A stretch of DNA of 64,000 bases. It comes from a virus (Duplodnaviria > Caudoviricetes). The position numbers and the translations under genes are program-made. The notes under the pieces were generated by a model, which did not search any database, was not told the origin of the DNA, and was given only the letters and a program-made list of their open reading frames with translations. The DNA is taken from the IMG/VR virus record IMGVR_UViG_3300014206_000001, positions 2,645-66,644 of that record; one strand, 5' to 3'. Shown here piece after piece: positions 6,088-49,134 of this stretch. Position 1 is the stretch's first letter; the number at the start of each line of letters is the position of its first letter.

Positions 6088-6493
6088 ACTCTCGTTCAAC
6101 CTTCTTGCTGTATGCAGTATAGTCTCCCGGATTCCACTTTCTTATAGCACACTGTATATCTTTATCGGGATTATAATGGTTCTGAATGATATTAAATATC
6201 TCTATTGATTTTTGTTTTGAATACCTATCTTTCAACTTGTACCTATTCTCTTTTACAATCCTATTTGCATCCCTTAAACAGATAGGAGTTATTTGTAATA
6301 TACCTACATCGTTCGCATATCCTACAGCTAAAGAATCACCACCAGATTCTACTTCTATCATAGCTTCTATTAATATCTGCCAAAAATCCACCTCTTCAAC
6401 TGGTACAATATTATGTTGTATAACATATAATTCCGGATTAATTCGGATACCAGTCATTATAATTAGTATTAGTAGTATTGTTTTCTTCTTCAT
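6038..6493 (-). CDS. Lytic transglycosylase (SLT-like) with N-terminal signal/anchor
   Basis: AMIEVESGG..DVGILQITP..AIRKWN motifs; hydrophobic N-terminus MKKKTILLILIIMTG. Confidence 0.8.
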   Translation of the reverse strand: MKKKTILLILIIMTGIRINPELYVIQHNIVPVEEVDFWQILIEAMIEVESGGDSLAVGYANDVGILQITPICLRDANRIVKENRYKLKDRYSKQKSIEIFNIIQNHYNPDKDIQCAIRKWNPGDYTAYSKKVEREFNKICPDSYSEYCSSE

Positions 6494-7212
6494 TACGTAT
6501 AGTATTCTACCCATTTATTTAATGCCCTGCATACCTGTCCCGGGTTCCATTCTTTGCCCATAGAGGTCTTTTCTCCTGTTCCATTCAAAGTATTGCATAT
6601 ACTTTCTAAAGTGTCGCCACGTGTACGTAATGACGAAATTAAAAGATATTGTCTTTTCTTAATTGGATCTCTTGCCATGTCTATTTTCTTTTTATATGCA
6701 GCAGCTATATGTGCCTCATCCATAGACGCACCTTTTCCTCTTCCTAAATGGGTTATTTTTTTGCCTTTTTTAGATATGTGGTGTCCGTTCTTTTTAATAT
6801 CTTTCTTAATCTGTTTTAATGCTTGTTTAGTACGCAAAGCAATTAGTAATGCTTCTCGTTCAGCAATAGCAAAAAACAATATAAAGGTAAATCTATCGGC
6901 ATTCGGGATATCACAGCAAACTAAATTACCTTCTCCTAATTCTGCCATAACGGCCAACGCATCATCAAGATTCCTGAATCTATCTGATTTATATATAATC
7001 AGCTTTGCTCCATTCTTTTTACAGCAGTCAATAGCTTTTCTAAGCTGTACACAATGAACTAAGTCTGTTCCCGTGTACACTTCGCTAAAAGTTTCTATTA
7101 CTTTTCCATCTTTGATGAAGTAATCAATAATATCTGATTGAGCATTTAATCCCAGTCCTGAATCTCCCTGTTTCTTCGTTGAAACACGAAGATATTTGAC
7201 ATATTTTTCCAT
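6493..7212 (-). CDS. Small serine recombinase (resolvase/invertase family)
   Basis: YLRVSTKKQ catalytic Ser motif, SGLGLNAQ, KSDRFR, AEREALLIALRTKQAL and a C-terminal HTH-like region. Confidence 0.9.
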   Translation of the reverse strand: MEKYVKYLRVSTKKQGDSGLGLNAQSDIIDYFIKDGKVIETFSEVYTGTDLVHCVQLRKAIDCCKKNGAKLIIYKSDRFRNLDDALAVMAELGEGNLVCCDIPNADRFTFILFFAIAEREALLIALRTKQALKQIKKDIKKNGHHISKKGKKITHLGRGKGASMDEAHIAAAYKKKIDMARDPIKKRQYLLISSLRTRGDTLESICNTLNGTGEKTSMGKEWNPGQVCRALNKWVEYYT

Positions 7213-7293: not shown

Positions 7294-7731
7294 TTATTTT
7301 AAATTGTACATTAAACTAAATTTCGTATATCCACCGTGCTTTATTATTTCTATTCTATTCGCACTTTCTATAGGATGAAAACAGGCGTGTTCTACCGATA
7401 AATTAATTTTTGGTAGTATTTTATACTTTGCAGACACTTTATATTCTGCGTTTACAGGAGAATAACACGAAATTGTATTTATATCTGTATAAGTATCAGT
7501 ACGTATTTTTAATTCTAAATTCTTAATAGGTGAATATCTCACACCAATCAGTAGATTTAATTCGCCTGCATTATAGGTCAAAATATTATCATAATGTTTA
7601 TAAGAATCCTCAGATGGTTGTTCTAAAATAATCTGATTACTCGTATAGTATTCAATCCCCGCAAAGAACTCAGGTTTTTGAGCGAACAATAAAGAAGGGA
7701 CAAGTAGAAATAGTAATAATAATTTTTTCAT
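7294..7731 (-). CDS. Secreted, probably outer-membrane beta-barrel-like protein
   Basis: Signal peptide ending LLFA/Q; alternating aromatic/hydrophobic strands; terminal FSLMYNLK. Confidence 0.5.
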   Translation of the reverse strand: MKKLLLLFLLVPSLLFAQKPEFFAGIEYYTSNQIILEQPSEDSYKHYDNILTYNAGELNLLIGVRYSPIKNLELKIRTDTYTDINTISCYSPVNAEYKVSAKYKILPKINLSVEHACFHPIESANRIEIIKHGGYTKFSLMYNLK

Positions 7732-7862
7732 AATCGTCTATTTATTAAAAATGATATAAAAAACACAGTAAATAGAATAGCAAAATTAAGCACGTCATCC
7801 CCTGAATAAGTGGCCACGGCAATAAGGGTTATTAAGAGCCATATAGTTGATAGTTTTTTCAT
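7728..7862 (-). CDS. Small membrane protein (44 aa, absent from ORF track)
   Basis: MKKLSTIWLLITLIAVATYSGDDVLNFAILFTVFFISFLINRRL; ATGA overlaps with both neighbours. Confidence 0.6.
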   Translation of the reverse strand: MKKLSTIWLLITLIAVATYSGDDVLNFAILFTVFFISFLINRRL

Positions 7863-8092
7863 TGTAGTATAAAATAATACCAACGGTTTCGGAACTCGAA
7901 ATTCAATGCTGGATAGCCATCTATTCCACGACCTTCGTCCAACATAGTCGCAGCTTCTGATTCAGGAACTACTTGGTATATAAAAATACCTTCTTTTGTT
8001 ATTGATAGATCTCTTTCGTCTATTTCGTACGGTTCAGCTATCAAGTTGTTTTCGCTTACTACTTCTTTGATTTTTCGTACTATTGGTCTCAT
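7859..8092 (-). CDS. Hypothetical protein
   Basis: ORF coupled to neighbours in the leftward operon. Confidence 0.6.
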   Translation of the reverse strand: MRPIVRKIKEVVSENNLIAEPYEIDERDLSITKEGIFIYQVVPESEAATMLDEGRGIDGYPALNFEFRNRWYYFILQ

Positions 8093-8984: not shown

Positions 8985-9350
8985 TTAATATAAGTTAAAC
9001 CACATATCACATTCTTTCAATTCAATTTTAACAGGCATATCGAATTTATTTGAAGAGTTTATATACTCCTCGAATCTATTAATATATTCGCCCTGTTCGC
9101 CTATTATTAAACCCGGTCTATAAGTCGTAATAACCACAGTATAATCCTTTTCGTTTTTATAGAACTTTACGTCTGTAATAGTTATTCGTACATCGTAAGG
9201 ACGAGTAGCATCTCCATAGAAAAAATTTAAACATCTTTTGATTTCCTTATTATCTACCTCTGTTTTTATTTCCCTTTTCAACATATTTCCCATATACTTT
9301 GCTGCATTTTTTGCTGCTGTTATTAGTCTTTTTGTTGCTGCATTTTTCAT
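8985..9350 (-). CDS. KH-domain protein resembling the ribosomal protein S3 N-terminal (type II KH) domain
   Basis: YTVVITTYRPGLIIGEQGEYINRFEEYI matches the S3 pattern [22 protein letters not shown]. Confidence 0.6.
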   Translation of the reverse strand: MKNAATKRLITAAKNAAKYMGNMLKREIKTEVDNKEIKRCLNFFYGDATRPYDVRITITDVKFYKNEKDYTVVITTYRPGLIIGEQGEYINRFEEYINSSNKFDMPVKIELKECDMWFNLY

Positions 9351-10104: not shown

Positions 10105-10680
10105 TTATCTATTAATAAAATAATCCTCTAAATTTTCATCATTAAATTCTTCCGGTAGGCATTCCCGTATATCTTCAATGTAATAAAAACCCCCGTAAGA
10201 ATCTTCAAACTCTCCGTTTTCATCATATAATTCAAACCGGTAAATTTCATTATTCAAATAACTATTATATTCATTCAGTTCATTATCAACTACATTTGAT
10301 AAATGTTCATTGTCCATTTTCTCCACGGTCAAACCTGTTTCATCAACTTGCGCCTGAGTAATGAAGGCGAACCCGTAAAACGAACTATCAAAACCTGATT
10401 CAAGTGACTGATGCAAAGCAATTCCAGAATGTTCGTACTTCGTAATAAAACAGGAATAGTATATTTTACCGTACTTTTCTGTTATTTCCTTACATACCGC
10501 TGTTTTTAATTCGCTCATATTACGGCAAGTATTAAGATATTTTTGTATTATCTCCTTTGCTTTGTCGTCACTCTTTAATAGAAATAAAGTTGTATTTGTA
10601 TCTTCGCGCGGGTTCATAGGATCCTCATCATAATAGATTTTTAAACGCGGTTCATTAACGGTTCTTTTAAATGTTTTCAT
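10105..10680 (-). CDS. Conserved acidic early protein (YEHSG..DS..GGFY type)
   Basis: 191 aa ORF with an acidic C-terminal half; the motif style is recalled from phage/ICE leading regions. Confidence 0.65.
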   Translation of the reverse strand: MKTFKRTVNEPRLKIYYDEDPMNPREDTNTTLFLLKSDDKAKEIIQKYLNTCRNMSELKTAVCKEITEKYGKIYYSCFITKYEHSGIALHQSLESGFDSSFYGFAFITQAQVDETGLTVEKMDNEHLSNVVDNELNEYNSYLNNEIYRFELYDENGEFEDSYGGFYYIEDIRECLPEEFNDENLEDYFINR

Positions 10681-10711
10681 AATATTATAATTTAATTGTT
10701 AAAAAAATTTG

Positions 10712-10756
10712 TACCACGCCCGGAATTGAACCGGGAAATTTTTACCTGTCGTGGTT
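10712..10756 (-). ncRNA. tRNA-like minihelix (acceptor stem + T-arm only)
   Basis: Minus strand reads ACCACG-14 nt-CCCGG-TTCAATT-CCGGG-CGTGGT-ACAAA; intergenic. Confidence 0.55.
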
Positions 10757-10765
10757 TGTTTTGTT

Positions 10766-10987
10766 CTACATTATTTCAGCCGCCCAAACATTTTCATCAT
10801 CAAAATATTCAGCCCTTTGTACTTCATTTTGTCCCTGTTTGCCGCCCATAGGGTTAAGATTTATATACTTTTGCATAATTTGTTCAATCTCTGCACAGCC
10901 TAAAGCCTTATTTTTTGTGTATAGAATAATATTCTTTTCACTTGCTGCTATTTGTACACTTCCGTAAACTGTTTTATAATTTTCCAT
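10766..10987 (-). CDS. Hypothetical early protein
   Basis: ORF with A-rich leader. Confidence 0.6.
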   Translation of the reverse strand: MENYKTVYGSVQIAASEKNIILYTKNKALGCAEIEQIMQKYINLNPMGGKQGQNEVQRAEYFDDENVWAAEIM

Positions 10988-11000
10988 TTTTGTTTAATTT

Positions 11001-11096
11001 TTAAAGTTTAATAAAATACATTTCGTAAACTATCAACAGCCCGGCAATTACTTCCAGGGCTGTTAGTGCTGTTTGTTCAATTCTTTTATAGTTCAT
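11001..11096 (-). CDS. Small membrane peptide (31 aa, absent from ORF track)
   Basis: MNYKRIEQTALTALEVIAGLLIVYEMYFIKL; A-rich leader. Confidence 0.5.
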   Translation of the reverse strand: MNYKRIEQTALTALEVIAGLLIVYEMYFIKL

Positions 11097-11189
11097 TTTG
11101 TTTTTCTTTTAATAATAATAACCGCCCGGAGCGGGTTAATTCTTTTGCTCTTTGTTCGCATTTTCGCCGGTTTTCTTTTATTATGTTTT

Positions 11190-12951: not shown

Positions 12952-13185
12952 TTATTTTAAAAGTTCTCCAATACAAATATTTTTACATTCCTTTTCGTCA
13001 GGGTCGCAGTCAGATAAAAAATTATTTAAAAAGTCTTTTTGATCCTTTTTTCTTAATTGATTAAATAAGTTTTTTACTTGATCTCTGTTTCCGTTTATTA
13101 AAGACAATATTATATAATCATAGTATTGTTCTTTTGTTTTAAAATCATACTCTTTGGCAAGAGTTGAAGCGTATTTTTTACTCAT
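12952..13185 (-). CDS. Hypothetical early protein
   Basis: Tiled ORF whose leader is shared with 10105..10680. Confidence 0.65.
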   Translation of the reverse strand: MSKKYASTLAKEYDFKTKEQYYDYIILSLINGNRDQVKNLFNQLRKKDQKDFLNNFLSDCDPDEKECKNICIGELLK

Positions 13186-13232
13186 AATATTTATAATTTA
13201 ATTGTTTAAAAAATTTGTACCGGTTAAAAGAT

Positions 13233-16834: not shown

Positions 16835-17824
16835 ATGAAACAGAAAATAGTTATTACAGCAAGAGAAGAGAGATTTATGCAGAAAGCCATCAACTTTCTT
16901 AAAAGTGTAGATGAGAGTGTGGAAAGCAATGGCAACTATAAAGAAAGATTAGTAAACCGAGCAATAAACGGGATGCCATGGTCTAATCACAATTGGGCAT
17001 GGTCATTTCTTTGCTCTGCTGACGAATATAAACAAGCTGGATTTATCCATTTTAGCATGCCGGAAGACTTTGATACATTGAAAGCGATGTATGGGATGGA
17101 AAAAACTATTGAGAACCAAAGAAAAGAATTGAGGAGTTTTAATAATAAAAAGAGAAAAGAAGAGAAACCGCATTTTGTTGCTCGTGTAGATTCTCATTGT
17201 GAGGATGTTTTAAAAAATATTTTTCCTGAGGGAACGGATAAAACAACTTGTACTAGATGTGATATAGATATAGAAGATTATAGAAATCAAATCAACAAAG
17301 CATTTTTTACTCCGAAACTAAATGTAAAGCCTAAAAAAGTAGTCTTCACAAACAGTATTGGTGAACAGTTTACTAAGAAGTATTTGAAAAAGAATAAAGT
17401 TTACTGGGTAATAAAAGAGGGGTTGATTGTTTTTGGTGGACTTATCACTCTTCCATTATATGAAGAAAATAGTTTTTTCTCTGAAATATTCAAGACCGAA
17501 GCATCAGCAGAAACATGGAAGAAAAACTATATTGCAAAGCAGGCGAAAAAAGGCATGAAATGGAATGGGAAAGAATTTGTGGAGATGAAGTTGAGTGAAA
17601 TGGAATATCATGCTAAAGACAGAGAAGATTTGAGGGATGTGATGATGAAGTTGCCTATTGAAATTCTAAACGAAGGATTTAATACCGATATTGTTTATAA
17701 TTTTGTTTCTTTTTCTTGTGGTAGAATAAACAATTTTACAAAAGAATCACATAGCGGTCATAATTTAACAGAAGTAACCAAAGAAGTATTTATTAACGCT
17801 GTAATAAAATATATATGCGAATAA
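16835..17824 (+). CDS. Hypothetical protein sharing a domain with 45190..45921
   Basis: Shared VFTN..GE.FT and SE.FKTE.SAE.WK..Y segments. Confidence 0.7.
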   Translation: MKQKIVITAREERFMQKAINFLKSVDESVESNGNYKERLVNRAINGMPWSNHNWAWSFLCSADEYKQAGFIHFSMPEDFDTLKAMYGMEKTIENQRKELRSFNNKKRKEEKPHFVARVDSHCEDVLKNIFPEGTDKTTCTRCDIDIEDYRNQINKAFFTPKLNVKPKKVVFTNSIGEQFTKKYLKKNKVYWVIKEGLIVFGGLITLPLYEENSFFSEIFKTEASAETWKKNYIAKQAKKGMKWNGKEFVEMKLSEMEYHAKDREDLRDVMMKLPIEILNEGFNTDIVYNFVSFSCGRINNFTKESHSGHNLTEVTKEVFINAVIKYICE

Positions 17825-18126
17825 TAGAAAGAATAAAAAAACTGTTTAAGAAAAAAGAACAGGAAAGAGGAGTAACGGTTGTGGAATTAAAAAACGATAT
17901 GCGAAGAAGCGATATAGTGTGTACTGCTGTATATACTCTTACAAAGACTGCTGATGATGAGAATTACATAAAGCTCCTCAGAAATACAAGTCTGTGTGTA
18001 AGAACAAGACCTCGCAATGATTTTGCAAAGCCACGCAATCCGAACTACATTAACCAAAAGGGTATTACTCCTTGTCGTAATAGGTTAAATAATATGAAGA
18101 AGGATAGGTGTTATGTTGAAAATTAA
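17815..18126 (+). CDS. Hypothetical protein
   Basis: Tiled ORF. Confidence 0.55.
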   Translation: MRIIERIKKLFKKKEQERGVTVVELKNDMRRSDIVCTAVYTLTKTADDENYIKLLRNTSLCVRTRPRNDFAKPRNPNYINQKGITPCRNRLNNMKKDRCYVEN

Positions 18127-18358
18127 AAATAGCATGAATATAGAAAAAGCATTTGTGAAACTAACAGGGGATACTGATAACAGGAATATAGGAAAAATAA
18201 AAGGTACCACCAAATCAGAAGTAAAAAAACTATGTGGAAAAGATTGGAATGAAAAAGCTTGGCAAAGAATGACACGTACTTCAAGAAAATCTAAGAATAG
18301 GATAACAGAAGAATTACCTTTTTTTGATAAAGAACAAAAATTATGGTTTTGGTTTTAA
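18113..18358 (+). CDS. Hypothetical protein
   Basis: Tiled ORF. Confidence 0.55.
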   Translation: MLKIKNSMNIEKAFVKLTGDTDNRNIGKIKGTTKSEVKKLCGKDWNEKAWQRMTRTSRKSKNRITEELPFFDKEQKLWFWF

Positions 18359-48869: not shown

Positions 48870-49046
48870 ATGGAAAATAAAACAGTATCATCGAGTTGTT
48901 GCAAATACAAGTGTGATTGCTGCGGGAAAATACTTCCTGTGGCAATTATAAATCTAAAAGGAGAGGTGACATTGTCAGTTTTTTGTAGACATTGTAAATC
49001 AACTACGATTATAAATGTCAAAAATTGCGAAGTAGAGCAGAGGTAG
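48870..49046 (+). CDS. Com-like (Mu) zinc-ribbon protein
   Basis: YKCDCCGKIL..LSVFCRHCKSTTII. Confidence 0.7.
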   Translation: MENKTVSSSCCKYKCDCCGKILPVAIINLKGEVTLSVFCRHCKSTTIINVKNCEVEQR

Positions 49047-49097
49047 CTCGTTAGCTTCATGAGCTAAAGGTCGGTGGTTCAAATCCATCCTTCGCTA
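49026..49097 (+). tRNA. tRNA-Met(CAT), initiator-like body; CCA not encoded
   Basis: Acceptor TGCGAAG/CTTCGCT (1:72 mismatch), D-stem GAGC/GCTC, anticodon arm TTAGC-TTCATGA-GCTAA, T-arm GGTGG-TTCAAAT-CCATC. Confidence 0.9.
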
Positions 49098-49134
49098 CAA
49101 AGTGTCCAAGAGACCGAAAAAATATAGAGGCTAT

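Follow-up and report, generated by a model that had tools for sequence, protein, structure and literature searches.

The early gene block of the phage genome analyzed here carries, between two genes and on their strand, an element built like the top half of a tRNA, with an acceptor stem stacked on a T-arm. Judged by its sequence and predicted fold, this minihelix fits a recurrent phage class of top-half elements with covarying stems. We give about even chances to the reading that it acts as a t-element-like cis processing signal for RNase P and RNase Z in the early transcript.

Structure of the minihelix

The window, by which we mean the whole 64,000-nt stretch that was analyzed, comes from a 66,644-bp IMG/VR virus genome with direct terminal repeats (DTR) and ∼32% G+C. 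The minihelix consists of the following parts.

10711..10756, minus strand: whole top-half minihelix, from the mismatched A at position 1 to the discriminator-like C (sequence, fold and CM match)
10750..10755, minus strand: 5′ acceptor strand ACCACG (tRNA positions 2-7), forming six Watson-Crick pairs with 10713-10718
10736..10749, minus strand: 14-nt linker ACAGGTAAAAATTT in place of the D and anticodon arms (sequence)
10719..10735, minus strand: T-arm CCCGG-TTCAATT-CCGGG, containing the GGTTCRANYCC motif
10713..10718, minus strand: 3′ acceptor strand CGTGGT, stacked directly on the T-stem

On the minus strand, the sequence reads A(10756)-ACCACG(10755-10750)-ACAGGTAAAAATTT(10749-10736)-CCCGG(10735-10731)-TTCAATT(10730-10724)-CCGGG(10723-10719)-CGTGGT(10718-10713)-A(10712)-C(10711)-AAATTTTTTT. 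The T-loop is canonical (T54 T55 C56 R57 A58), the T-stem is closed by G53-C61, and the instance of the GGTTCRANYCC motif (GGTTCAATTCC, 10732-10722, minus strand) lies inside the tRNA-like fold. Six Watson-Crick pairs and an A·A mismatch at 1:72 make up the acceptor, giving a stack of 11 bp versus 12 in tRNA. There is no D arm, anticodon arm or encoded CCA, and the 14 nt between the 5′ acceptor strand and the T-stem include a GGT at 10744-10746 (GG being linker positions 4-5) that resembles G18 G19 U20 of the D-loop. Folded alone, the minihelix adopts this arrangement as its minimum-free-energy and centroid structure, at −15.3 kcal/mol, with 83% of the ensemble and z = −2.7, and the same fold is both the minimum-free-energy and the centroid structure within 181 nt of context. 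Sequence and minimum-free-energy fold therefore agree with the initial annotation, which had described an acceptor-like stem on a perfect T-arm with the D and anticodon arms replaced by a linker.

The element is not a canonical tRNA gene. ARAGORN, run on the window, called only a tRNA-Met at 49026-49098 and neither a tRNA nor a tmRNA at the minihelix, and Rfam gave no tRNA match at E ≤ 10 within 10400-11100; by both results, and by the 14-nt linker, a cloverleaf with D and anticodon arms is rejected. Likewise set aside was an Rfam match to the Plastid-ycf2 5′UTR (10711-10755, plus strand), which is driven by the T-arm and falls below threshold (22.6 bits versus a gathering score of 65.7). The tRNA-Met(CAT), which is on the plus strand, has a U1·U72 mismatch, no encoded CCA and the trailer A-CAAAG, and its anticodon stem is without the three G-C pairs of initiator tRNAs. 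Because this tRNA of the phage's own lacks an encoded CCA, the host must mature CCA-less tRNA-shaped precursors. The ACAAA common to the trailers of the minihelix and the tRNA-Met was discounted as evidence, the register being off by one relative to the T-stem.

A canonical T-arm pattern occurs twice on the two strands of the window, once in the minihelix and once in the real tRNA-Met. In shuffled versions of the window (n = 300), the T-arm was found 0.05 times per window, and the T-arm together with a 6-bp acceptor within 6-20 nt 0.003 times per window; across ∼1.9 Mb of reversed-sequence controls, no top-half element was detected. The intergenic position, the sense orientation with the flanking genes and the GGT in the linker are features outside the shuffle test that strengthen its result. 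A rate of 0.003 chance matches per window is non-negligible over very many windows, and a single locus alone is no proof.

Genomic setting

Between 6 and 14 kb, small minus-strand ORFs form a tightly packed block. The minihelix is flanked by two of them.

10766..10987, minus strand: upstream 73-aa ORF, stop TAG at 10768-10766, 9-10 nt ahead of the minihelix
10105..10680, minus strand: downstream 191-aa gene of the function-unknown family phrog_6186, ATG at 10680, 31 nt after 10712

The initial annotation had placed the element between genes of the early block, and this is borne out: it is intergenic, in the same sense as both neighbors and at the distances given above from TAG and ATG, and the 85-nt gap that holds it is the largest in the 6-14 kb block. 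The 73-aa ORF has no family match. In the leader, a search for a sigma-70 or Bacteroidota-type (TAnnTTTG) promoter did not find one.

The affinities of the phage were examined through its proteins. A 286-aa neighbor protein is 38% identical to a protein of LoVEphage (Bacteroides) and 49% identical to a protein of Flavobacterium phage FL-1, and a 77-aa protein (12952-13185) has homologues at 51-65% identity on marine metagenome contigs. One of the contigs with a 77-aa homologue, a Tara contig of 67.9 kb, carries a resolvase gene close to the distal end of its early block, as does this phage. Together with the gene content given below, these comparisons point to marine or Bacteroidota-type hosts and to kinship with marine and Bacteroidota-type phages. 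No DNA similarity to known phages was detected around the locus, tblastn of the 191-aa protein against phages gave no match, and no close relatives were found in IMG/VR through three neighboring proteins. The genome encodes a D5-type primase-helicase, Dam methylase, NrdD, ThyX, a helicase and a YqaJ-type exonuclease, and the phage, which is DTR-ended, is probably lytic.

Several other features of the block deserve mention. At its distal end, 3.5 kb from the minihelix, lies a small serine recombinase/invertase (Resolvase domain, 239 aa, 6493-7212, minus strand), and the kin Tara contig (L245) has a similarly placed serine recombinase at 17474-18148. The same early operon includes, 1.4 kb downstream of the minihelix (8985-9350, minus strand), a gene for a 121-aa protein in which a KH_2 RNA-binding domain was recognized (E 3e-6). 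It also has a terminator-like hairpin CCGCTCCGGGCGG followed by TTATTATTAT at 11122-11134 on the minus strand, ∼370 nt upstream of the minihelix. Because of this hairpin, the early block may not be a single uninterrupted transcript.

A recurrent class of phage top-half elements

Among the IMG/VR matches to the 17-nt T-arm were tRNAs, att fragments, tmRNA ends and elements with the minihelix architecture; the identical 17-mer is found in many phage tRNAs and in other minihelices. From the IMG/VR loci we defined a class with a 5-bp T-stem closed by G53-C61, a 7-nt TTCRANY loop, a 7-bp acceptor stacked on the T-stem (12-13 bp in total) and a linker of ∼8-16 nt with GG(T) near its 5′ end; by context, members are in sense orientation within an operon, start at or just past a stop codon and lie ahead of the next start. 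A strict descriptor, requiring seven Watson-Crick or GU acceptor pairs, a linker of 6-20 nt and a canonical T-arm, gave 18 matches (∼13 elements) in 970 kb of IMG/VR loci, whereas 905 kb of bacterial loci and the reversed controls gave no match at all. Single contigs hold independent elements with differing T-arm sequences: there are three each on contigs L155, L206, L136 and L232, and at least eight on L197 (IMGVR_UViG_3300043754_000046). Both L197 and L232 are G+C-rich viral contigs, with minihelices on one strand at a spacing of ∼0.3-1 kb.

Across 13 members, 96.8% of cells are paired, two-sided changes occur in 10 of 12 pairs, and pairing with slid partners is at most 54%, in an alignment that was fitted to the CM (MAFFT could not place the 5′ strands). 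The initial annotation had proposed covariation among related phages as a check on the element. In part this is answered, by compensatory changes in these class members elsewhere, whereas no relative carries the minihelix at this locus. In 13 of 18 cases, members start −1 to 19 nt past a stop codon on their own strand, ahead of the next start, and such placement right past stop codons would fit a processing, or "punctuation," signal. GG, usually GGT, is present within the first seven linker bases, at positions 2-4, in 13 of 15 members, compared with a shuffled mean of 6.7, and 13 was reached in only 1 of 2000 shuffles. By analogy with tRNA structure, we infer that the linker GG sits where G18 G19 of the D-loop would dock on the T-loop.

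How well does the minihelix match this class? CM R2, which was built from the 13 members, none of them from this window, matches 10712-10755 with 29.7 bits (E 8.6e-6), and this is the sole significant match in the 66.6-kb genome. The T-arm supplies much of that score, as tRNA-Cys att fragments with the same T-arm reach 24-26 bits. Since the T-arm alone brings so many bits, discrimination falls to the pairing of the 5′ strand, the short linker with GG and the context, and the minihelix has all three. Its T-arm (CCCGG-TTCAATT-CCGGG) and linker (ACAGGTAAAAATTT) are of the class type, and it lies 9 nt past TAG and 31 nt ahead of ATG. The acceptor, with six pairs, the A·A mismatch and the resulting 11 bp, fails the strict 7-bp descriptor and passes a 6-bp one.

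The kin Tara phage (L245) has a minihelix of its own at 7828-7871 on the plus strand, 8 nt past the stop of the first early gene. It is composed of AGCGTT, a linker with GGT, the T-arm AAAGG TTCGATT CCTTT and AACGCT, and is followed by ∼730 nt without called genes. Because this different minihelix follows the first early gene of a kin phage, the lineage appears to use such elements at shifting positions. A matching kin minihelix is found on contig L246 at 2066-2109, and the acceptor strands of the L245 element are identical to those of an IMG/VR element in L160/L201, with differing T-stems. In the cultured Flavobacterium phage FL-1, a candidate at KY421186.2 7247-7287 (plus strand; 1501-1541 of our locus L239) was detected with a CM E of 0.006. 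Located 18 nt ahead of an ATG at 7306, it has an extended 8-bp hairpin, a T-loop and GGT in a 5′ bulge; given the extended fold and no close relatives for comparison, its membership in the class is possible.

Twin leaders with and without the minihelix

The A/U-rich sequence that leads from the minihelix to the 191-aa gene is present a second time, ahead of the 77-aa gene.

10681..10715, minus strand: A/U-rich leader copy 1 (GGTACAAATTTTTTTAACAATTAAATTATAATATT), up to the ATG at 10680
13186..13225, minus strand: leader copy 2, the "empty site" AACC|GGTACAAATTTTTTAAACAATTAAATTATAAATATT, ahead of the ATG at 13185 of the 77-aa gene
10716..10752, minus strand: 37-nt core present at 10.7 kb and absent at 13.2 kb (alignment and repeat search)

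By repeat search, the 35-nt leader has exactly two copies in the window, where none is expected by chance, and the left flank AACC is shared as well. The 13.2-kb copy reads AACC|GGTAC, and the 10.7-kb copy has exactly 37 nt between these flanks. Within this core are the three innermost acceptor pairs, the linker and the T-arm. For the empty copy, no structure is predicted (fold z = +2.0). The core was either inserted into one leader or symmetrically deleted from the other and is thus an optional module, gained or lost, a point that the initial annotation had not raised. As the 13.2-kb leader does without the minihelix, the minihelix is dispensable for that leader. Near-identical filled and empty leaders within one genome also offer a natural control for the role of the minihelix.

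Homologues of the 191-aa gene (L004-L007, ∼40% identity) have an upstream spacer of 7-22 nt and no minihelix, and ahead of the homologues of the 77-aa gene (L245-L252) the spacers are short and the leader is missing. A 194-aa protein of L245 was considered as a further homologue of the 191-aa protein and was rejected on comparison. Because the homologues of both genes are without them, the two leader copies and the minihelix are lineage-specific additions. The leader itself resembles a duplicated cassette, which relatives of the 77-aa gene do not have. No donor copy of the core was found in the collections searched (IMG/VR, GTDB genomes and JGI metagenomes), and patterns combining leader and element gave no match in IMG/VR or JGI metagenomes.

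Conceivably, the 37-nt core is a portable cassette that can enter or leave phage leaders at short palindromes, although we consider this unlikely. If it were so, phages could place host tRNA-processing sites between their genes and take them out again, with the core as a mobile "RNA punctuation mark" by which operon expression is remodeled, and the filled and empty twin leaders seen here would be a snapshot of that process.

Proposed function and alternative explanations

RNase Z accepts minihelices. Bacterial RNase P correctly cleaves acceptor/T-arm hairpins (McClain, Guerrier-Takada and Altman 1987, reviewed in PMC11143913). In plant mitochondria, tRNA-like t-elements guide RNase P and RNase Z to the sites where mRNA ends are cut (Forner et al. 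2007, PMC1920247), and such elements have been put to like use in Haloferax volcanii (PMC6546412). Because RNase P takes such hairpins and t-elements define mRNA ends elsewhere, we favor a cis processing signal as the reading of the minihelix, at the even chances given above. Under this proposal, the minihelix would be carried in a leftward early polycistronic RNA, transcription of the block being presumed, and would fold in that RNA, with the GG linker able to replace the D-loop at the tRNA elbow. Host RNase P would then cut at the 5′ edge, at about 10757/10756 or 10756/10755, and RNase Z or 3′ trimming would cut past the discriminator, at about 10712/10711. The upstream cistrons would thereby be parted from the 191-aa gene, which would keep an A/U-rich 5′ leader of ∼30 nt, and a small RNA of ∼45 nt would be released. 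Both the RNase P/RNase Z cleavage and any effect on expression are inferred only, by analogy with these systems. Points against the processing reading are the single copy in the genome, the acceptor of six pairs plus A·A, the missing CCA, the absence of the element from the upstream regions of homologues and from the other collections searched, the twin leader that does without it and the large share of the T-arm in the CM score.

Some of the same points would suit a neutral or selfish tRNA-derived mini-insertion, in which 37 nt carrying a hairpin entered a duplicated leader at its ACC|GGT palindrome, or were cleanly lost from the other copy, and have no role in expression. The twin leaders, differing by exactly 37 nt between AACC and GGTAC, speak for such an event, as do the equivalent position being empty in all relatives and a single-copy element with an imperfect 1:72 pair; identity of the T-arm plus CGTGG with the 3′ part of some tRNA-Cys genes in IMG/VR suggests a tRNA origin. 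However, a donor is found nowhere in the collections searched, and the linker is not a deletion product of tRNA-Cys, yet has the class-typical GGT. Orientation, spacing from the stop codon, the intact 11-bp stack and the canonical T-loop all match class members with compensatory evolution, and mobility and function can coexist. We therefore regard an insertion without function as rather unlikely, while granting it a real minority chance. Relic explanations fare much worse. Many of the IMG/VR matches to this T-arm are 3′ fragments of tRNA-Cys, as is typical of att sites, and might be taken to favor a remnant of attP or of a phage tRNA gene that has decayed. Nevertheless, the exact 24-mer spanning the T-arm and 3′ strand has no match in IMG/VR or in the GTDB representative genomes, which cover 185,579 prokaryotic species, and a relaxed 18-mer had 120 matches in bacterial genomes, none of which ARAGORN called as tRNA and those inspected resembling G+C-rich coding sequence; no cellular tRNA with the acceptor/T-arm combination of the minihelix was seen in this 18-mer search. 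In the minihelix the 5′ strand is there and pairs, no trace of a D or anticodon arm is left in the linker, and the genome has DTR ends, with no tyrosine integrase found near the minihelix and only the small serine recombinase 3.5 kb away. The earlier contention that this is no att remnant, made on the grounds that the complementary 5′ strand is there, thus stands, and a relic of either kind is hardly credible.

Two further explanations were weighed. In one, the element is a structural hairpin, 5′-proximal or intercistronic and independent of tRNA enzymes, that stabilizes the mRNA, uncouples the translation of neighboring cistrons or, with the U7 run behind it, acts as a weak attenuator. It does occupy the only large gap (85 nt) of a tightly packed operon, and the U7 run starts 5 nt past the outer stem. 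That run is 11 nt past the inner stem, though, and a minus-strand scan for intrinsic terminators, defined by a U-tract within 0-2 nt of a G+C-rich hairpin, made no call at the minihelix. Moreover, a generic hairpin needs no TTCAATT T-loop, G53-C61 closing pair or GG linker, features that class members share repeatedly, and we think this explanation improbable. (On the antisense, plus strand, the T-arm hairpin is flagged as terminator-like; no plus-strand genes are nearby.) In the other explanation, put forward in the initial annotation for defenses that sense or cleave tRNA, the released RNA would be a decoy or sponge for proteins that bind the tRNA elbow or acceptor end, such as defense toxins, CCA-adding or modification enzymes and SmpB-like binders. 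The elbow-like design, with its T-loop and linker GG, and the stable fold would suit proteins that bind tRNA shape. On the other hand, there is neither an anticodon loop, the target of most known anticodon nucleases, nor an encoded CCA, and among 30 ORFs scanned there was no tRNA-repair, tRNA-processing or nearby defense-related gene. Acceptor stems in the class are also highly variable, and its members sit at gene boundaries, sometimes many to a contig, a pattern better suited to punctuation in cis. The decoy proposal thus found no support, and its probability is slight.

The cis processing signal, if it is indeed cut by RNase P and RNase Z, would mean that phages of several host groups shape their early transcripts by mitochondrial-style "tRNA punctuation." Annotation would then be missing a regulatory layer, because tRNA finders and Rfam skip minihelices. 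If cut, elements of this kind would also be of use in engineering, as compact signals for RNA cutting by host enzymes.

Comparison with known systems

Several known RNAs share parts of this architecture. The tRNA-like domain of tmRNA, like the minihelix, has an acceptor stem and T-arm with a D-loop analogue and no D-stem. In tmRNA, however, the acceptor strands are ∼300 nt apart, separated by pseudoknots and the tag ORF, and the molecule is aminoacylated; as noted, ARAGORN finds no tmRNA here. Synthetic minihelix substrates of RNase P (PMC11143913) resemble the element in having an acceptor stem stacked on a T-stem and loop, which is sufficient for correct cleavage in vitro. These substrates are linker-free and usually CCA-ended, whereas the phage element, with its 11 bp and the mismatch, bulges out a 14-nt linker that includes GGT and has no CCA. 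Among phage RNAs, the phi80 M3 RNA and the precursor of the P1/P7 C4 antisense RNA (PMC11143913) are transcripts matured by host RNase P via tRNA-like features, but they are dedicated small-RNA precursors with other folds and not intercistronic top-half mimics.

A 2023 catalogue of conserved RNA structures in IMG/VR viruses includes csRNAs labeled "tRNA or tRNA-like" that only sometimes overlap ARAGORN calls (PMC10690425). In the part of its text covered by our search, the acceptor/T-arm architecture, the placement after stop codons and a processing role do not appear. Full-text literature searches found no description of such phage top-half elements, and the class is apparently undescribed so far.

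A further parallel is with the t-elements (PMC1920247, PMC6546412), which, like the minihelix, place a tRNA-like fold with GGTTCRANYCC in a longer or polycistronic transcript beside coding regions, and for which a role in guiding the RNase P and RNase Z cuts behind mRNA ends has been proposed or shown. The t-elements come from organelles or archaea, in many cases form a more complete, non-canonical cloverleaf, and have mapped RNA ends; in contrast, the minihelix is phage-borne, consists only of acceptor, T-arm and 14-nt linker, and is described here from its sequence and predicted fold. Mimicry of tRNA in the manner of t-elements is itself already known, and what appears to be new is its occurrence in phages.
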